Sequence record: PQ821741.1
DNA from: a phage
DNA length: 40,867 bases
Reading direction: 5' to 3' (one strand)
The position numbers and the translations under genes were made by a program. A model generated the notes under the pieces. The model saw only the letters and a list, made by a program, of their open reading frames with translations. It made no database searches and was not told where the DNA came from. The number at the start of each line of letters is the position of its first letter. Position 1 is the first letter of the stretch. Below are positions 7,801-40,867 of the stretch, piece by piece.

Positions 7801-8863
7801 AACAATGCCATTTAAAGCTGTGTCTTTCGTAGAGTCTGCCATTAAGAAAGCTCTGGACAACGCTGGGTATCTTATAGCCGACATCAAGTACGATGGTGTA
7901 CGCGGGAACATCTGCGTAGACAATACCGCTAACAGTTGCTGGCTCTCTCGTGTATCAAAAACGATTCCGGCGCTTTCTTACCTTAATGGGTTCGATACAC
8001 GTTGGCAGCGTCTACTAAAGGATGACCGTTGCTTCTACCCTGATGGCTTCATGCTGGATTGCGAACTTATGGTCAAGGGAGTGGACTTCAATACTGGCTC
8101 CGGCCTTCTGCGGACCAAGTGGCTCAACAAGAAGAACATGCAATTCGATATTGGCGGCCCATATGAATCGTGGGACGCGAGCATGAAGGGACTTCCTTTC
8201 GGCCTTGACCCGAACTTACTAACAGTCAAGCTGTACGCCATCCTTCCGCTGCACATCGTGGAGTCTGGAGAAGACTGTGACGTTATGACGTTGCTAATGC
8301 AGGAACACGTTAAGAACATGCTGCCTCTGCTACAGGAATACTTCCCTGAAATCGAATGGCAAGCGGCTGAGTCTTACGAGGTCTACGACATGGTTGAACT
8401 ACAGCAACTGTACGAGAAGAAGCGTGAAGAAGGTCATGAGGGTCTCATTGTGAAAGACCCGATGTGTATCTATAAGCGCGGCAAGAAGTCCGGCTGGTGG
8501 AAGATGAAGCCAGAGAATGAGGCCGATGGTGTCGTTGTGGGACTCAACTGGGGAACTCCCGGTCTTGCCAACGAGGGAAAGGTGATTGGCTTCGAGGTTC
8601 TCCTTGAGTCTGGTCGAGTGGTATCCGCCAACAACATCTCTCAGGCACTTATGGAGGAGTTCACTAAGACTGTAGCTGAGGCAAGCGGTTACACACTAAC
8701 AGGTGGACCCGTAGTAATTCAAGATGGTCAACCAAAGGTCAACCCTTACGAGGGCTGGGCGTGCCAGATTAGCTACATGGAGGAAACCCCAGACGGCTCT
8801 CTGCGTCACCCATCGTTCGTAATGTTCCGTGGCACCGAGGACAACCCTCAAGAGAAAATGTAA
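7790..8863 (+). CDS. 1.3: ATP-dependent DNA ligase
   Basis: 357 aa; KYDGVRG adenylation motif; C-terminus ...DGSLRHPSFVMFRGTEDNPQEKM as T7 ligase. Confidence 0.95.
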   Translation: MQIKTMPFKAVSFVESAIKKALDNAGYLIADIKYDGVRGNICVDNTANSCWLSRVSKTIPALSYLNGFDTRWQRLLKDDRCFYPDGFMLDCELMVKGVDFNTGSGLLRTKWLNKKNMQFDIGGPYESWDASMKGLPFGLDPNLLTVKLYAILPLHIVESGEDCDVMTLLMQEHVKNMLPLLQEYFPEIEWQAAESYEVYDMVELQQLYEKKREEGHEGLIVKDPMCIYKRGKKSGWWKMKPENEADGVVVGLNWGTPGLANEGKVIGFEVLLESGRVVSANNISQALMEEFTKTVAEASGYTLTGGPVVIQDGQPKVNPYEGWACQISYMEETPDGSLRHPSFVMFRGTEDNPQEKM

Positions 8864-8865
8864 AC

Positions 8866-8900
8866 ACACTGGCTCACCTTAGGGTGGGCCTTTCTGCGTT
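8866..8900 (+). terminator. Early terminator TE (rho-independent)
   Basis: ggctcacc-ttag-ggtgggcc hairpin followed by tttctgcgttt. Confidence 0.85.
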
Positions 8901-8923
8901 TAATACGACTCACTAAAGGAGGT
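8901..8923 (+). promoter_or_regulatory. T7 promoter phi1.5
   Basis: taatacgactcactaaaggaggt. Confidence 0.85.
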
Positions 8924-8930
8924 ACACACC

Positions 8931-9077
8931 ATGATGTACTTAATACCATTATTCATCCCTTACGAGGGCTGGGCGTGCCAGATTAGCTACATGGAGGAAA
9001 CCCCAGACGGCTCTCTGCGTCACCCATCGTTCGTAATGTTCCGTGGCACCGAGGACAACCCTCAAGAGAAAATGTAA
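8931..9077 (+). pseudogene. Chimeric ORF from the duplication: 9 N-terminal codons of the small gene fused in frame to the last 39 codons of ligase
   Basis: MMYLIPLFI + PYEGWACQISYMEETPDGSLRHPSFVMFRGTEDNPQEKM; has the native RBS ggagg. Confidence 0.6.
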
Positions 9078-9079
9078 AC

Positions 9080-9114
9080 ACACTGGCTCACCTTAGGGTG
9101 GGCCTTTCTGCGTT
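9080..9114 (+). terminator. Second copy of TE terminator (in duplication)
   Basis: Identical to 8866-8900. Confidence 0.8.
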
Positions 9115-9137
9115 TAATACGACTCACTAAAGGAGGT
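9115..9137 (+). promoter_or_regulatory. Second copy of phi1.5 promoter (in duplication)
   Basis: Identical to 8901-8923. Confidence 0.8.
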
Positions 9138-9144
9138 ACACACC

Positions 9145-9234
9145 ATGATGTACTTAATACCATTATTCATCGTCATCCTAGGATGCCTTGCGCTCACCTG
9201 TAGCGACGACGATATGCCAGATGGTCACGCTTAA
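9145..9234 (+). CDS. Small protein, gene 1.4/1.5-like (29 aa)
   Basis: MMYLIPLFIVILGCLALTCSDDDMPDGHA; RBS aggagg. Confidence 0.7.
   Translation: MMYLIPLFIVILGCLALTCSDDDMPDGHA

Positions 9235-10043: not shown

Positions 10044-10056
<13 letters not shown>
9520..10056 (+). CDS. 1.7: Gene 1.7 nucleotide kinase
   Basis: 178 aa; TGATG overlap with 1.6; matches T7 gp1.7. Confidence 0.85.
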
Positions 10057-10561
<505 letters not shown>

Positions 10562-15120: not shown

Positions 15121-17352
15121 ATGATCGTTTCTGACATCGAAGCTAACGCCCTCTTAGAGAGCGTCACTAAGTTCCACTGCGGGGTTATCTACGACTACTC
15201 TACCGCTGAGTACGTAAGCTACCGTCCGAGTGACTTCGGTGCGTATCTGGATGCGCTGGAAGCCGAGGTTGCACGAGGCGGTCTTATTGTGTTCCACAAC
15301 GGTCACAAGTATGACGTTCCTGCATTGACAAAACTGGCAAAGCTGCAATTGAACCGAGAGTTCCACATTCCTCGTGAGAACTGTATCGACACCCTTGTGC
15401 TGTCACGCTTGATTCACTCTAACCTCAAGGACACCGACATGGGTCTTCTGCGTTCCGGTAAACTTCCGGGTAAACGCTTTGGGTCTCACGCTTTGGAGGC
15501 GTGGGGTTATCGCTTAGGCGAGATGAAGGGTGAATACAAGGACGACTTTAAGCGTATGCTTGAAGAGCAGGGTGAAGAATACGTTGACGGAATGGAGTGG
15601 TGGAACTTCAACGAAGAGATGATGGCCTATAACGTTCAGGACGTTGTGGTCACTAAGGCTCTCCTTGAGAAATTACTGTCAGACAAGCACTATTTCCCTT
15701 TAGGTTTAGAGCACGTTAATTATGATTCTATAATCTTTTGGAAAGACTCTATCGAAGCTATTGATGTTGAACATAGAGCAGCTTGGTTGTTAGCTAAACA
15801 GGAGCGTAATGGTTTCCCATTTGACGCTAAGGCAATCGAGGAGTTGTACGTAGAGTTAGCTGCTCGCCGCTCTGAGTTGCTCCGCAAATTGACCGAAACG
15901 TTCGGCTCATGGTATCAGCCCAAAGGTGGCACCGAAATGTTCTGCCATCCGAGGACTGGTAAGCCACTGCCCAAATACCCTCGCATTAAGACACCTAAAG
16001 TTGGTGGTATCTTTAAGAAGCCTAAGAACAAGGCACAGCGAGAAGGCCGTGAGCCTTGCGAACTGGATACCCGCGAGTACGTTGCTGGTGCCCCTTACAC
16101 CCCAGTTGAGCATGTAGTGTTTAACCCATCGTCTCGTGACCACATCCAGAAGAAACTCCAAGAGGCTGGATGGGTCCCAACCAAGTACACCGATAAGGGT
16201 GCGCCTGTGGTGGACGATGAGGTACTCGAAGGAGTACGTGTAGATGACCCTGAGAAGCAAGCTGCAATCGACCTCATTAAAGAATACTTGATGATTCAGA
16301 AGCGAATCGGACAGTCTGCTGAGGGAGACAAGGCGTGGCTTCGTTACGTTGCCGATGATGGTAAGATTCACGGCTCTGTAAACCCTAACGGGGCAGTTAC
16401 TGGTCGCGCTACCCATGCTTTCCCCAACCTTGCGCAAATTCCGGGTGTGCGTTCACCTTATGGAGAGCAGTGTCGCGCTGCTTTTGGTGCTGAACATCAC
16501 CTAGACGGTATTACTGGTAAGCCTTGGGTTCAGGCGGGTATCGACGCATCCGGTCTGGAACTACGCTGCTTGGCCCACTTCATGGCTCGCTTTGATAACG
16601 GCGAGTACGCTCACGAGATTCTTAATGGAGACATCCACACTAAGAACCAGATGGCTGCCGACGCATCCGGTCTGGAACTACGCTGCTTGGCCCACTTCAT
16701 GGCTCGCTTTGATAACGGCGAGTACGCTCACGAGATTCTTAATGGAGACATCCACACTAAGAACCAGATGGCTGCCGAATTGCCTACCCGTGATAACGCC
16801 AAGACGTTCATCTATGGGTTCCTCTACGGTGCTGGCGATGAGAAGATTGGGCAGATTGTCGGTGCTGGTAAAGAGCGTGGTAAGGAACTCAAGAAGAAAT
16901 TCCTTGAGAACACCCCTGCGATTGCGGCACTCCGAGAGTCTATCCAACAGACACTTGTTGAGTCCTCTCAGTGGGTAGCTGGCGAACAGCGAGTCAAGTG
17001 GAAACGCCGCTGGATTAAAGGTCTGGATGGTCGCAAGGTACACGTTCGTAGTCCTCACGCTGCCCTGAATACCCTACTGCAATCCGCTGGTGCGCTCATC
17101 TGCAAACTGTGGATTATCAAGACCGAAGAGATGCTCGTAGAGAAAGGCTTGAAGCATGGCTGGGATGGGGACTTTGCGTACATGGCGTGGGTCCACGATG
17201 AAATCCAAGTGGGTTGTCGTACCGAAGAGATTGCTCAGGTGGTCATTGAGACAGCACAAGAAGCGATGCGCTGGGTTGGAGACCACTGGAACTTCCGGTG
17301 TCTTCTGGATACAGAAGGTAAGATGGGTCCTAATTGGGCCGTATGTCACTAA
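15121..17352 (+). CDS. 5: DNA polymerase (family A), carrying an internal 39-aa in-frame tandem duplication
   Basis: 743 aa against 704 in T7; otherwise near-identical to T7 gp5. Confidence 0.95.
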   Translation: MIVSDIEANALLESVTKFHCGVIYDYSTAEYVSYRPSDFGAYLDALEAEVARGGLIVFHNGHKYDVPALTKLAKLQLNREFHIPRENCIDTLVLSRLIHSNLKDTDMGLLRSGKLPGKRFGSHALEAWGYRLGEMKGEYKDDFKRMLEEQGEEYVDGMEWWNFNEEMMAYNVQDVVVTKALLEKLLSDKHYFPLGLEHVNYDSIIFWKDSIEAIDVEHRAAWLLAKQERNGFPFDAKAIEELYVELAARRSELLRKLTETFGSWYQPKGGTEMFCHPRTGKPLPKYPRIKTPKVGGIFKKPKNKAQREGREPCELDTREYVAGAPYTPVEHVVFNPSSRDHIQKKLQEAGWVPTKYTDKGAPVVDDEVLEGVRVDDPEKQAAIDLIKEYLMIQKRIGQSAEGDKAWLRYVADDGKIHGSVNPNGAVTGRATHAFPNLAQIPGVRSPYGEQCRAAFGAEHHLDGITGKPWVQAGIDASGLELRCLAHFMARFDNGEYAHEILNGDIHTKNQMAADASGLELRCLAHFMARFDNGEYAHEILNGDIHTKNQMAAELPTRDNAKTFIYGFLYGAGDEKIGQIVGAGKERGKELKKKFLENTPAIAALRESIQQTLVESSQWVAGEQRVKWKRRWIKGLDGRKVHVRSPHAALNTLLQSAGALICKLWIIKTEEMLVEKGLKHGWDGDFAYMAWVHDEIQVGCRTEEIAQVVIETAQEAMRWVGDHWNFRCLLDTEGKMGPNWAVCH
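16542..16775 (+). repeat. Exact in-frame tandem duplication, 117-bp unit (16542-16658 and 16659-16775)
   Basis: 120 nt identity at offset 117 with cga microhomology; encodes DASGLELRCLAHFMARFDNGEYAHEILNGDIHTKNQMAA twice. Confidence 0.95.
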
Positions 17353-17814
17353 TTCTAAAGGAGAAATTATTATGGCTATGACCAAGAAATTTAAAGTGTC
17401 CTTCGATGTTACCGCTAAGATGCCATCTGACGTTCAGGCAATCTTAGAGAAAGACATGCTACACCTGTGTAAGCAGGTTGGCTCCGGTGCTATCGTGCCA
17501 GATGGTAAACAGAAGGAAATGATTGTACAGTTCCTGACATATGGTTGGAGACCACTGGAACTTCCGGTGTCTTCTGGATACAGAAGGTAAGATGGGTCCT
17601 AATTGGGCCGTATGTCACTAATTCTAAAGGAGAAATTATTATGGCTATGACCAAGAAATTTAAAGTGTCCTTCGATGTTACCGCTAAGATGCCATCTGAC
17701 GTTCAGGCAATCTTAGAGAAAGACATGCTACACCTGTGTAAGCAGGTTGGCTCCGGTGCTATCGTGCCAGATGGTAAACAGAAGGAAATGATTGTACAGT
17801 TCCTGACATATGGT
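17277..17814 (+). repeat. Exact tandem duplication, 269-bp unit (17277-17545 and 17546-17814)
   Basis: 272 nt identity at offset 269 with ggt microhomology; spans gene 5 3' end, intergenic RBS and 5' 56 codons of gene 5.5. Confidence 0.95.
17372..17590 (+). pseudogene. Truncated gene 5.5 copy fused out of frame to a duplicated gene 5 tail (72 aa)
   Basis: First 56 codons identical to gene 5.5, then frame-shifted tail WRPLELPVSSGYRR*. Confidence 0.7.
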
Positions 17815-34000: not shown

Positions 34001-34980
34001 CTAACTACATCATTGACGCTGCCCGTCAAGGTGTCCTTGGGGATATTGCAAGTGCGGTATTATCAGGGACTGGTGCTAAGTTTGGTAAGGCAAATTATCT
34101 TAAGTCTGCATCAATAAGCCCTGAGCAGTGGAATGGTATCAAGCAACTATTTAGAGACCACGCCACTCGTGATTCTAGCGGTAAGTTCACAATCAGGGAC
34201 AAAAGAGCGTTCACCTATGACCCTCGCACAATGGACCTGTGGAGACTTGCTGATAAAGTTGCAGGTGAGACAATCATGCGACCGCACAAGATTTCCTCAC
34301 AGGACTCAGTTGCGTATGGGGCAGGTGTTAAGATGGTGATGCAGTTTAAGAACTTCGTCATTAAGTCTCTTAACGCCAGATTCGTGCGTAGCTTCTATGA
34401 GGCCACAAAGAACAACCGTGCGTTAGACCAAGCGTTAACACACATTGTCGCCTGTGGTCTTGCTGGTGGGTATTATGTTGGACAGGCTCATCTTAAGGCC
34501 GCTTCCTTACAGGAGGACAAACGTAAGGAGTACCTCAAGATGGCACTAGACCCGAAGATGATTGCTCATGCATCCATCTCTCGTAGCTCACATTTAGGTT
34601 CGCCACTTAGCATCTACGATATGATCGCTGGGGTGTTTGGTGATGACACCTATAAGTACACACGTTCCACTGTACTACCGAAGCAACCAGAAGAACGCGA
34701 TCGCACAAAAGCGGTCTCAGGTCGTCAGGTTACTGGTATGATTAGTGGTGCTTTAGGCGAGCAGATTCCTGCTTTAGGGTTCGCAGGGCAGGTTGGCGGT
34801 ACGGCACTTAATGCTGTATCACTACTGAAAGCGCCCAACAAGGCTACCGAGATGGAGTTCCGTACAGGGATGTTTAATACCATGCGTGAGATTGTTCCGA
34901 ACGACCCTATCACGCAGCAACTCATTATGAAAATTTATGAGGCAAACGGTATCCACATCAAGGAGACACCTAGGAAATAA
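31006..34980 (+). CDS. 16: Internal virion protein D (gp16) with N-terminal lytic transglycosylase domain
   Basis: 1324 aa; transglycosylase motifs ...WTESRFQPTAKSKTGPLGMMQF... Confidence 0.95.
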   Translation: MDKYDKNVPSEYDGLFQKAADANGVSYDLLRKVAWTESRFQPTAKSKTGPLGMMQFTKATAKAMGLNVTDGPDDDRLVPELSINAAARHLAELVNKFDGDELKAALAYNQGEGRLGAPQLEAYSKGDFSAISDEGRNYMRNLMDVAKSPMAGQLEAFGGITPKGKGIPSDVGLGDIKVEGKRKVTDAIPESTGLDIKGIEQEAPAKSFATDFWDHHKQKPSEYDDRSTFFGFKDAASAEIDNSVLGMAFRAGRLDNSFDVFKDVITPTRWNSTIWTPEELERIRTEVKNPAYLNVVTGGSPENLDDLIRLANENYENDLKKADAGIGAQLSAGVVGAAFDPLSYVPLVGVTGKGFKLINKALVVGAESAAINMASEGLRTSIAGGDANYTGAVLGGLVFGAGMSAISDAIAAGLRRSKPEAEFNNEFVGPLMRMEARETAFNANSVDMSKMNTDSTKFDREYSGVNYAPLDTEPGAVVLPQGQILSDTNPLNPQTLSEFEAINPERAARGISLGGFTEIGLKTLRSENAGVRSIARDLVRSPTGMESGSNGKFGSTADDIHSRLSSNDNRDWNLYYDKMREVMKDPEFTTGAPKMSKAEAVEFIDRKIAMAIEHPELQVNLSPKELDLMRHVKGHYDLKRELMENPAVFGNPNAVSIFPGSRNKGTYIPRVYDTQSKNLYIQRLGSREALQDAIAESSLASYYLRPEVKARIDEHLMEVNGLKSTKEVTHDMVRKYAMDKAYGISHTDQFSSSSIVDENITGLVGIENNNFLEARNLFDTDVPTTLPDGSTFSVDDLRVFSQRILMPAYDRRVNGDIAIMGSSGKTTKELKDEIMALSKQAEGNGKLKGEVEALKDTVKILTGRARRSPEGALGTALRSLNDMTFFAKNFYMPLQNFTEIAGMLVKGNVSAVTHGIPVINDWVNRRKPMRASEIKELHSMVFGKELDQLIRPSREDHIRRLRESTDTNAVLANVVGTLRFGTQELAARSPWTVMLNGTTNYIIDAARQGVLGDIASAVLSGTGAKFGKANYLKSASISPEQWNGIKQLFRDHATRDSSGKFTIRDKRAFTYDPRTMDLWRLADKVAGETIMRPHKISSQDSVAYGAGVKMVMQFKNFVIKSLNARFVRSFYEATKNNRALDQALTHIVACGLAGGYYVGQAHLKAASLQEDKRKEYLKMALDPKMIAHASISRSSHLGSPLSIYDMIAGVFGDDTYKYTRSTVLPKQPEERDRTKAVSGRQVTGMISGALGEQIPALGFAGQVGGTALNAVSLLKAPNKATEMEFRTGMFNTMREIVPNDPITQQLIMKIYEANGIHIKETPRK

Positions 34981-35000
34981 TACGACTCACTATAGGGAGA
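34978..35000 (+). promoter_or_regulatory. T7 promoter phi17
   Basis: taatacgactcactatagggaga, overlapping gene 16 stop. Confidence 0.9.
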
Positions 35001-35052: not shown

Positions 35053-35736
35053 ATGGCTAACGTAATTAAAACAGTTTTGACTTACCCGTTAGATGGCTCC
35101 ACTCGTGATTTTAATATCCCGTTTGAGTATCTAGCCCGTAAGTTCGTAGTGGTAACTCTTATTGGTGTAGACCGCAAGGTCCTTACGATTAATACAGACT
35201 ACCGTTTTGCTACTCGCACTACCATCTCATTAACCAAGGCTTGGGGTCCAGCGGATGGATATACTACCATCGAGTTGCGCCGAGTAACCTCAACTACCGA
35301 CCGATTGGTTGACTTTACAGATGGTTCAATCCTCCGTGCATATGACCTTAACGTGGCTCAGATTCAGACTATGCATGTGGCAGAAGAGGCACGTGACTTA
35401 ACTGCGGATACAATCGGTGTCAATAGTGACGGTCACTTGGATGCCCGTGGTCGTCGAATTGTGAACCTAGCGAACGCTGTAGATGATTATGATGCCATCA
35501 ACCTACGTCAGGTTAAGCTGTGGAACAATAGTGCGTATCAATCAGCCGTGAACGCGAAGACCTCTGAGACGAACGCTAAGACCTCTGAGACAAACGCCTT
35601 AACATACCGCAATTCTGCTGCTGCTAGTGCCACCGCTGCAAGCACTTCTGAGACGAACGCGAAGACCTCTGAGACGAACGCGAAGACCTCTGAGACGAAC
35701 GCGAAGACCTCTGAGATTACTGCGAAGTTCCTATAA
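35053..35736 (+). pseudogene. 17: Tail fibre gene 17, N-terminal part, ending at premature TAA
   Basis: MANVIKTVLTY...FNIPFEYLARKFVVVTLIGVDRKVLT... matches T7/T3 gp17 N-terminus; frame ends ...TSEITAKFL* at 35734-36. Confidence 0.85.
35556..35723 (+). repeat. 21-bp tandem repeats encoding the heptad TSETNAK (2 units, 42-bp spacer, 4 units)
   Basis: gaagacctctgagacgaacgc repeated; two adjacent units are nucleotide-identical. Confidence 0.85.
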
Positions 35737-35868
35737 GGATGCTGCTGCTTCAAGTGCCACTGCTTCTGCTGCTAGTGCAGCTACCTGTAAGGCAGTTGCT
35801 ATAAGGATGCTGCTGCTTCAAGTGCCACTGCTTCTGCTGCTAGTGCAGCTACCTCTAAGGCAGAGGCC
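35733..35868 (+). repeat. Imperfect 68-bp tandem repeat inside gene 17 (35733-35800 and 35801-35868)
   Basis: First ~55 nt identical, 3' ends differ; copy 1 is +1 relative to the gene frame and carries TAA/TAG/TAA stops. Confidence 0.85.
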
Positions 35869-36489
35869 GACCGCGCGGAGCTACGTGCAAACCAAGCAGG
35901 TGGAGCTAGGGTTATAAACGGAATCTATCCAGATTCTAGTGGAAGCGTAACACTCACTACTGATGACATCAAAGACCCATCTGGTGTTACCATAATGATG
36001 GCTGTTCGATCTATGATTGACGCTATCTTTCCTGTCGGTATTCGCATGGATTGGCCTCTCGCTTCCCTTCCCGATAATCCAACACTTGGTGTTAAGTTTC
36101 TTAGGTTGGATGGGTCTAGCTTTGATAAAACACAGTACCCCAAGCTGGCTGCCATATATCCGTCTGGAGTTTTGCCAGATTTACGTGGTGAGTTTATTCG
36201 TGGCTGGGATGACGGGCGCGGGGTTGATGGTGGGCGCGTTGTTTTAACTGGTCAGAGCCAATCAGTACAGCAGCATACTCATGGTCTAGCGATGGCATAC
36301 AGTTCAGAGAGCGGTTACAAGGACAAGCTAGGCGCTGGCCCTAACTCTGACATGATTCCGATTAAAGATATGATTAAAGTAACCACTTTTACTGGTTCTG
36401 GTGAGTATTACTTAAAGGCGAATGATTCAACAGGTGTTGAAACTCGCCCGCGCAACGTCGCATTTAACTTCATCGTGAGGGCCGCATAA
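35803..36489 (+). pseudogene. 17: Tail fibre gene 17, C-terminal part with tip 1 (in frame with N-terminal part but separated by stops)
   Basis: KDAAASSATASAASAATSKAEADRAE...GEFIRGWDDGRGVDGGR...TRPRNVAFNFIVRAA*; no own start or RBS. Confidence 0.8.
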
Positions 36490-36841
36490 TGACACAGGCA
36501 AAATTAAACAGTGAATTTATTGCCACAGTAGCGGGTGATATGAAGATTCTAGTGGAAGCGTAACACTCACTACTGATGACATCAAAGACCCATCTGGTGT
36601 TACCATAATGATGGCTGTTCGATCTATGATTGACGCTATCTTTCCTGTCGGTATTCGCATGGATTGGCCTCTCGCTTCCCTTCCCGATAATCCAACACTT
36701 GGTGTTAAGTTTCTTAGGTTGGATGGGTCTAGCTTTGATAAAACACAGTACCCCAAGCTGGCTGCCATATATCCGTCTGGAGTTTTGCCAGATTTACGTG
36801 GTGAGTTTATTCGTGGCTGGGATGACGGGCGCGGGGTTGAT
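35931..36841 (+). repeat. 298-bp exact direct repeat (35931-36228 and 36544-36841), period 613 bp
   Basis: Base-by-base identical; both copies encode ...DSSGSVTLTTDDIKDPSGVTIMMAVRSMIDAIFPVGIRMDW...GEFIRGWDDGRGVD. Confidence 0.95.
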
Positions 36842-37123
36842 AGAGGGCGCGGATTAATGAGTGCTCAGGGCGATGCCATTCGGAATATTACTGGTCGCAT
36901 TAGGGGCGGGTCATCTGGGTCTTATGGTAAAATCTTCCTGGATGAATCTAGTGGTGCTTTTTTCCCTTCCGGTGAGGATGGAGAACAGTTCCATCCTTCA
37001 TCGACACCTCTACCTTATGGGAGATACAACACTGTAGATTTTGATGCTAGCAGGGTAGTCCCAACTGCCGACGAAAACCGCCCAAGAAACGTTGCGTGGA
37101 ATATGATTGTGAGGGCATCGTAA
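36539..37123 (+). other. Promoterless, startless second tail-fibre C-terminal cassette (tip 2)
   Basis: Reading frame opens after TGA at 36536-38; shared 298-bp stem then divergent tip ...NRPRNVAWNMIVRAS*; no RBS; first ATG is the internal Met-Met at 36608. Confidence 0.75.
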
Positions 37124-37157
37124 GCCTCGATATACTATAACAAATGAGGAGCACTTT

Positions 37158-37361
37158 ATGTTTTCGATTGATTTTAACAATGAGTTAGTCAAGGCTGCAC
37201 CTATTGTTGGCACAGGGGTGGCTGATGGTGCCGCCCGTCTTTTCTTCGGGCTGAGTCTTAATGAGTGGTTCTATGTTGCTGCTATCGCCTATACAGTGGT
37301 TCAGATTGGTGCCAAGGTAGTCGATAAGATGATTGACTGGAAGAAAGCCAATAAGGAGTGA
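37158..37361 (+). CDS. 17.5: Class II holin
   Basis: 67 aa MFSIDFNNELVKAAPIVGTGVADGAARLFFGLSLNEWFYVAAIAYTVVQIGAKVVDKMIDWKKANKE. Confidence 0.93.
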   Translation: MFSIDFNNELVKAAPIVGTGVADGAARLFFGLSLNEWFYVAAIAYTVVQIGAKVVDKMIDWKKANKE

Positions 37362-40354: not shown

Positions 40355-40418
40355 GGTCTTCCTGACCGACTGATGGCTCACCGAGGGATTCAGCGGTATG
40401 ATTGCATCACACCACTTC

Positions 40419-40867
40419 ATCCCTATAGAGTCAAGTCCTAAGGTATACCCATAAAGAGCCTCTAATGGTCTATCCTAAGGTATATACCTAAAGATAGGCC
40501 ATCCTATCAGTGTCACCTAAAGAGGGTCTTAGAGATGGCCTAGGGAGTTCCTAGAGGGTCCTTTAAAATATACCATAAAAATCTGAGTGACTATCTCACA
40601 GTGTACGGACCTAAAGTTCCCCCATAGGGGTACCTAAAGCCCAGCCAATCACCTAAAGTCAACCTTCGGTTGACCTTGAGGGTCCCTAAGGGTTAGGGTT
40701 GACCCTTTGAGTGGGCCTTGGGTGTTACCTTGAGTGTCTCTCTGTGTCCCTATCTGTTACAGCCTCCTAAAGTATCCTCCTAAAGTATCCTCCTAAAGTC
40801 ACCTCCTAAAGTCATTCCTACCGTCTACAACCTAAAGACTACACCTAAAGACCCATCAAGTCAACGC
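40419..40867. repeat. Right copy of 449-bp direct repeat (wrap-around into the genome left end)
   Basis: Identical to 32-480 except one mismatch. Confidence 0.95.
40594..40751 (+). repeat. T7-type terminal repeat, right copy
   Basis: Identical to 207-364. Confidence 0.8.

Follow-up and report, generated by a model that had tools for sequence, protein, structure and literature searches.

In bacteriophage T7, the tail fibre gene 17 lies behind a phi17-type promoter, encodes an N-terminal attachment domain and a heptad-repeat shaft, and is followed by a class II holin gene and gene 18. In P1 (S/U with cin) and Mu (S/U with gin), two alternative C-terminal tips stand behind a common constant segment. 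Several ways are known in which a reading frame broken by stop codons can still yield a product with its distal part in frame, among them the +1 frameshift of Escherichia coli prfB, the -1 frameshift of T7 gene 10A/10B and the bypass in T4 gene 60, where a stop directly follows the take-off site and a hairpin is present. Breaks in a frame may also come from tandem duplication mediated by microhomology, and the chimeras of multiple displacement amplification likewise form by template switching at microhomology.

The window considered here, a stretch of 40,867 nucleotides of phage DNA, is a complete T7-like (Teseptimavirus-type) genome with ~92% identity to phages such as CICC 80001 and N30 across its first 25 kb. 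It has ten T7-consensus promoters, including a perfect phi17-type promoter at 34978-35000, just 5' of gene 17. As in T7, this promoter is followed by an attachment domain and a heptad-repeat shaft, and the class II holin and gene 18 come after gene 17. Unlike T7 gp17, the ORF is interrupted after codon 227, two tips lie in tandem, and the distal half has a tip with a Collar domain (PF07484), of the type seen in side fibres of P2, Mu, P1 and lambdoid phages and also in the metagenomic fibre protein P0001. Outside the lesions every gene gives a full-length, single-frame match to N30 proteins (40 intact genes). This indicates high base-level quality, so that the defects are structural junctions and not base-calling noise; for the same reason, general indel noise was rejected as the cause of the break.

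The 5' ORF of gene 17 (35053..35736, + strand) encodes the tail-attachment domain and the start of the shaft in 227 codons, ending ...TSEITAKFL before a TAA at 35734-36. Its residues 1-156 match Pfam PF03906 (Phage_T7_tail, E=2.1e-69), and residues 1-238 of N30 gp17 give a single tblastn HSP at 35053-35724, with no second PF03906 anchor domain found elsewhere in the window by Pfam or tblastn. Directly 5' of the break are 3.3 copies of a perfect 21-nt repeat encoding AKTSETN heptads (35647..35716, + strand, found by TRF), and a second block of 21-nt repeats encoding the same heptad is located at 35550-35597. These repeats are a natural shaft motif; the tail fibre of Klebsiella phage 31 has AKTSETN too, and homology to such fibres stops exactly at 35727, the point at which the frame breaks. 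After the first TAA, frame 1 meets a TAG at 35773-75 and a TAA at 35788-90, opens again at 35791 (GSCYKDAAASS...) and continues to a TAA at 36487-89. In all of this the first-pass annotation proved correct: it had ended the frame from 35053 at TAA 35734-36, had counted three in-frame stops (TAA, TAG, TAA) after codon 227 and had the original frame reopening distally. Gene 17 as written is not one continuous ORF of anchor, shaft and receptor-binding tip, being cut by the stops at 35734, 35773 and 35788. The fibre fragment of 227 aa that was predicted as its product is likewise what the sequence encodes, namely anchor plus shaft only, with no start in frame 1 from 35791 to 35995. A model of two genes, an anchor and a separate tip, was rejected because frame 1 has no ATG, GTG or TTG from 35791 to 35994, and the ATGs within the TAAGGATG motifs lead into nothing but short nonsense ORFs (MLLLQVPLLLL...).

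A search of 5.8 billion proteins returned one full-length homologue of this gp17, the 477-aa P0001, encoded on the 2.4-kb ENA contig L001. There the segment is single-copy, gp17 is one uninterrupted ORF of 477 codons and the holin gene is directly downstream; nucleotide identity to window positions 35830-36238 is 92%. Further protein searches for closer gp17 relatives returned no match or prophage fibre tips only, a scan of viral-contig proteins found distant collar domains only, and one of metagenome proteins found nothing. Exact-pattern scans of IMG/VR with five window sequences (among them the repeat joint, unit core, upstream unit and downstream flank) and a scan of JGI metagenomes with a 24-mer gave no match, and the fibre ORFs and holin of the window have no exact sequence in a collection of 15 billion proteins. 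A literature search for tandem duplications in tail fibres of T7-like phages turned up nothing directly relevant.

The break itself consists of two lesions, a 68-nt duplication and a separate +1 within a few bases of its left edge. Two repeat finders describe a head-to-tail repeat of 2.0 copies with 97% matches (66/68 identical, far above chance), and the unit that is present twice here is present once in L001. Copy 1 (35726..35793, + strand) reads TAA, TAG, TAA in frame 1, and copy 2 (35794..35861, + strand) is in the original frame; as 68 is 3x22+2, copy 1 reads in frame 2 (SSYKDAAASSATASAASAATCKAVA) when copy 2 reads in frame 1. The copies differ at C35730/G35798 and G35787/C35855. G35798 stands against C in copy 1, G35787 stands against C in both copy 2 and L001, and L001 backs the C variants (ACCTCTAAGGCAGAGGCC) as ancestral. 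Both mismatches are C->G, one 7 nt to the left and the other 5 nt to the right of the novel joint, which suggests error-prone or low-quality sequence at the junction. The dinucleotide AG at 35726-27 recurs at 35862-63, right after copy 2, as a microhomology. A foreign donor of the unit was sought and rejected, with no match in E. coli genomes and just three matches at 81%, in Klebsiella phages.

The second lesion is a frame discrepancy of 1 nt at AAGTTCC (35725..35731, + strand), 5' of which the coding is in frame 1 and 3' of which the sensible reading (SSYKD...) is in frame 2. Between the anchors GC(G/T)AAG and GCTTCTGCTGC there are 34 nt in the window versus 33 nt in L001, with MAFFT placing a 1-nt gap here, and the alternatives considered for the written AAGTTCC are AAGTCC or AAGAGTTCC. 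Deletion of one 68-nt copy leaves the stop at codon 228 in place; removal of 69 nt (35734-35802, or one copy plus one base of AAGTTCC) gives a 455-codon ORF. Duplication and extra base together make 69 nt, so the distal frame is kept and copy 1 falls out of frame with its three stops. That the +1 coincides with the duplication boundary points to a single complex event, or to a local mis-join, more than to two events independent of each other. The first-pass annotation was thus right about a slightly mutated, frame-shifted 68-nt tandem repeat, but the block whose removal restores the frame is 69 nt long and is not the repeat unit. Removing 35734-35802, the check that it had proposed, produced a 455-codon ORF that aligns end to end with the intact gp17 P0001 at 61.6% identity.

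The distal half of the gene holds a second, larger rearrangement. The reopened frame (35791..36489, + strand, frame 1, start-less before 35995) encodes an Ala/Ser shaft, a neck, a Collar domain (PF07484, E=2e-7) and a tip that we call tip A. A stretch of 372 nt (36172..36543, + strand), comprising the conserved PDLRGEFIRGWDDGRGVD motif, tip A, the stop and the first 55 nt of an assembly gene, is 100% identical to bases 1681-2052 of the E. coli plasmid pEC213_2 (NZ_CP061103.1). This 92.7-kb P1-like element carries tail fibre, assembly protein, recombinase remnant, holin and head genes, and a search of 5,426 complete E. coli genomes and 72,556 plasmids gave the match in this record only. An exact run of 57 nt at 36172-36228, in the conserved collar motif ...PDLRGEFIRGWDDGRGVD, is common to the fibre genes of phage and plasmid. 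The assembly (tfa/U) gene start that follows tip A is truncated (36489..36563, + strand, 24 codons plus stop) and plasmid-like only in its first 55 nt; exact 36-mer matches to it occur in 12 prophage-type contigs of IMG/VR. Past base 36543 the sequence returns abruptly from plasmid-like tfa/U to the phage collar segment, where 36544-36851 repeats 35931-36238 with 306/308 positions identical as a 613-nt tandem duplication within gene 17. This second collar copy and its tip B (36544..37123, + strand, stop at 37121-23) have no start codon before 36608 and no promoter, and the holin gene is next, at 37158.

It is tip B, and not tip A, that corresponds to the tip of P0001. L001 matches the second region at 36544-36888 (89%) and 37040-37359 (79%), and a gp17 reconstructed with tip B (462 aa) is 66.6% identical to P0001 along the full length, as against 61.6% with tip A. 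From these alignments tip B (36842-37123) is the probable native 3' end of gene 17, and the true gene is likely to be a single ORF of ~462 codons ending in tip B. The segment 36229-36486, earlier taken for the receptor-binding end of the gene, is 100% plasmid-identical, and the probable native tip is located further downstream. The plasmid-identical stretch is either a chimera with host DNA or a receptor-binding tip captured very recently. Two tips in tandem recall the P1 and Mu cassettes, and the likeness to P1 extends to one tip and the chaperone gene start being identical to the fibre and assembly genes of a P1-like plasmid. In contrast to those cassettes, the collar repeats here are direct and not inverted, and the second cassette is without a start codon. 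No invertase or crossover sites were found, and no N30 protein maps to 35725-37157, the interval from the gp17 anchor to the holin, whose ORFs are two collar and tip fragments and short ORFs of at most 96 aa. The two-tip arrangement looks like a one-off chimeric junction.

These are not the only duplications in the record. Self-comparison of the window brings the tandem duplications to seven, the 68-nt and 613-nt ones included, and the five outside gene 17 are all perfect or nearly perfect copies. With a period of 410 nt, 1582-1953 is repeated exactly, in near-tandem, at 1992-2363 in the early region, over the 3' end of gene 0.3, gene 0.4 and downstream sequence. This site is complex, the last 38 nt of its first unit (1954-1991) differing from the sequence after the second, and a third, diverged partial copy is seen at 2557-2697. 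A 214-nt period (8739-8957 = 8953-9171) spans the end of the ligase gene with TCA(T/A)C at its joint, one of 163 nt (10044-10209 = 10207-10372) spans the end of gene 1.7 with ATG, and one of 269 nt (17274-17545 = 17543-17814) spans a gene end at DNA polymerase/gene 5.5 with GGT. The remaining one, of 117 nt (16542-16661 = 16659-16778), is perfect, in-frame and inside the DNA polymerase gene, with CGA at its joint. Of the five perfect duplications, four lie across the ends of genes, so that one intact copy of each gene is left. Every duplication site open to comparison is single-copy in relatives: the 214-, 163-, 117- and 269-nt sites in the alignment with N30 (L101), and the 117- and 269-nt sites in ENA contig L096 as well.

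The 117-nt event deserves particular attention. It repeats D475-A513 of T7 gp5, which comprises the motif A catalytic Asp475 and the dNTP-contacting region, so that the polymerase gene (15121-17352) encodes 743 aa instead of 704, and none of the 194 matching phage records has its junction as contiguous sequence. The polymerase otherwise matches T7 gp5 closely, and judged by the known structure of T7 DNA polymerase, the duplication is very probably disabling. With gp17 truncated and the active-site region of the polymerase duplicated, two essential genes are hit, and selection has therefore not filtered these events. The record as written is not a viable phage. It also departs from what is expected of a selected natural genome in having as many as seven tandem duplications within 40 kb, essential genes among those affected.

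The novel joints have microhomology in common: 3 nt each at ATG, CGA and GGT, 4/5 at TCA(T/A)C, and AG at the 68-nt duplication. For random junctions in this genome the probability of at least 3 nt is 0.056 and that of at least 2 nt is 0.16. Of 20,000 simulated sets, none had at least 2 nt at all five junctions together with at least 3 nt at three, a mark that the observed set itself narrowly misses, with only 1 exact nt at the 214-nt junction (4/5, one mismatch). Such microhomology is a signature of polymerase template switching and not of arbitrary cut-and-paste. With its head-to-tail copies, 2-5 nt of identity at the joints, single-copy relatives and changes clustered at the joint, the lesion fits microhomology-mediated tandem duplication in every testable respect.

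Taken as sequence, then, the stops are real, and the lesion is most likely a sequencing or assembly error or a defective molecule, and not recoding. Of the three options that the first-pass annotation had offered, error is favoured, and both engineering and recoding are unsupported. Our preferred account, to which we give a probability of roughly 0.55, is that the junctions arose outside the propagating genome as amplification or library chimeras that were taken in by the assembler, the chimera with the host P1-like plasmid included; we infer at the same level, rather than directly show, that they are artefacts and were not present in the phage stock. At gene 17, a polymerase would have switched template at the AG dinucleotide and so produced the 68-nt head-to-tail duplication in the region coding for the Ala/Ser-rich shaft, just 3' of the perfect 21-nt AKTSETN repeats (35647-35716), which are difficult both to replicate and to assemble. 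Chimeric molecules or reads from amplification or library preparation would then have been threaded by the assembler into the consensus, and the 613-nt event would be a chimera with P1-like plasmid DNA of the host formed via the common 57-mer.

Several lines of evidence point to this account. The closest full-length homologue has the segment once, in one uninterrupted ORF with the holin next to it; the record has six sister duplications, four of them at sites that are single-copy in N30, with the polymerase junction in 0/194 records; microhomology at the junctions goes together with two C->G mismatches near the 68-nt joint; two essential genes are hit while all others are intact; the ends of the window resemble a raw contig; and the 100% plasmid match ends 55 nt into the next plasmid gene before phage sequence takes over. 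Other observations argue against it. Several tandem duplications inside one sequence are not an artefact typical of assemblers, and those that work with k-mers normally collapse repeats of this kind. Slippage during replication in vivo would be equally expected to give microhomology. After the 68-nt collapse a +1 frameshift is left, which requires a second error or event at the same spot. Moreover, four of five perfect duplications spare genes, as a filter for viable phage would have it; a rough estimate puts the chance of this at 0.02-0.2, the value varying with whether the in-frame event in the polymerase is taken to be tolerated or not.

In the strongest rival, the duplications are real products of slippage or microhomology-mediated template switching during T7-type replication in vivo and the sequenced molecule is a defective genome. 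The 613-nt event would in that case be homology-facilitated illegitimate recombination with the P1-like host plasmid, and the defective genome could have been carried by complementation in a mixed population or sampled from intracellular, replicating DNA. Microhomology at the junctions is as much at home here; the perfect copies imply recent events, the coding sequence is otherwise flawless, with four of the five perfect duplications leaving genes intact, and the common run of 57 nt (36172-36228) is long enough for homologous exchange. Against this, gp17 and probably gp5 are non-functional and the genome cannot propagate alone, and nothing comparable to seven fixed duplications was seen in the relatives examined. 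The efficient recombination of T7, furthermore, rapidly removes direct repeats of 100-400 bp. We regard this explanation, together with its version of the 613-nt event, as possible and hold it only tentatively.

A bolder variant has all junctions real in one T7-like lineage, which would have captured the receptor-binding tip of a P1-like phage-plasmid of its E. coli host, at 100% nucleotide identity, by one homologous crossover in the 57-nt collar motif and one illegitimate joint, with its old tip left silent downstream. The many duplications flanked by microhomology, the 68-nt one of gene 17 among them, would then come from duplication-prone replication, possibly linked to the duplicated motif-A region of the polymerase. 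We find this scenario, crossover and joint together, doubtful.

Another origin would be that overlapping contigs or amplicons were joined end to end without trimming, one of the contigs having run into host-plasmid DNA. The variable lengths of the duplications, their mostly perfect copies, the mismatches close to the 68-nt joint, and the fold-back at one end of the window with an overlap common to both ends would suit such joins. However, 2-5 nt of microhomology is unexpected at arbitrary contig ends (joint probability of the order of 1e-4), and gene 17 is still out of frame after the 68-nt overlap has been trimmed, which makes untrimmed joining improbable.

Slightly less credit still is due to a non-natural sequence, whether from an engineered construct, from editing of the record by hand or from a T7-like genome generated by computer. 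The window is missing from every searched collection, and loops that copy back from short matching words, along with an abrupt verbatim switch to plasmid sequence at a motif that is widely conserved, would fit generated text. Yet divergence from relatives follows a natural mosaic, the capsid protein is identical to public ones, and the segment that includes the capsid gene is ~97.5% identical in DNA to contig L100; the T7 promoters are correct, 40 genes are intact and the 69-nt insert has no foreign tag. The engineered insertion that had been suggested for the break meets the same objection, as the extra bases merely copy neighbouring sequence and bring in no foreign tag or cassette.

The resemblance of the break to programmed frameshifting or to T4 gene 60 bypassing is superficial, residing in stops that interrupt an ORF with an in-frame distal part; unlike prfB, 10A/10B and gene 60, the locus has no slippery or take-off/landing architecture, stimulatory structure, upstream SD-like element or conservation. 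Bridging the break would take a +1 shift between 35716 and 35733 and then a -1 shift after 35790. No slippery X XXY YYZ heptamer or prfB-type CUU-UGA site is found at GCG AAG UUC CUA UAA, and no slippery heptamer or prfB-like site at the second shift. The RNA of 35700-35830 folds at -33.3 kcal/mol versus a shuffle mean of -39.4 (z=+1.75, less stable), and Rfam matched no family in 35400-36700. The frame change is also not conserved in the one close homologue available, P0001/L001, which reads straight through. The sole frame-compatible hop would take off at AAG 35725 and land at AAG 35803; two sense codons stand between its take-off and the stop, and it has no stable hairpin, where T4 gene 60 has matched take-off and landing codons, its stop directly after the take-off and a hairpin at that site. 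The recoding or bypass once proposed thus finds neither a slippery site, an RNA structure nor an Rfam match, and the homologue needs none. We therefore consider it scarcely credible that ribosomes bridge the break in expression, be it through a programmed +1 shift near 35728-35734 followed by a programmed -1 shift after 35790 or through a hop: a net insertion of exactly 69 nt does preserve the distal frame and the AAG...AAG pair is at compatible positions, but CUA-UAA and UUC-CUA re-pair poorly in +1, two sense codons separate the candidate take-off codon from the stop, the fold is weaker than that of shuffled sequence, and six sister duplications lie elsewhere in the record.

The finding is real as sequence and ordinary or artefactual as biology. 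Its main value is in quality control. Annotating the record as it is would yield a tail fibre that is cut short, a DNA polymerase of 743 aa and, for receptor binding, a spurious tip of plasmid origin, and host-range predictions made from tip A would probably be wrong; gene 17 (68-nt and 613-nt events) and gene 5 (117-nt event) need re-checking against reads before the record is annotated or used to infer host range. Should the junctions be real, the 613-nt event, and not the 68-nt repeat, would be the interesting one. It would mean that a fibre tip had passed very recently from a P1-like plasmid to a T7-like phage, and would catch a virulent phage and a phage-plasmid in the act of exchanging tail-fibre modules.

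The ends of the window deserve a final comment. Bases 1-37 form a fold-back, matching the reverse complement of 40384-40420 exactly, and bases 38-480 are those of 40425-40867 again, with one mismatch. The window thus starts ~206 nt before the left terminal repeat, in what looks like a concatemer junction or an untrimmed circularised contig, and its ends look like untrimmed raw assembler output. The fold-back lies at a near-palindrome, some 175-210 nt to the left of the terminal repeat. Within the terminal repeat, 3.8 copies of the 13-nt repeat CCTCCTAAAGTAT are found at 376-425 and at 40763-40812, and they are probably the usual terminal-repeat array of the T7 group.
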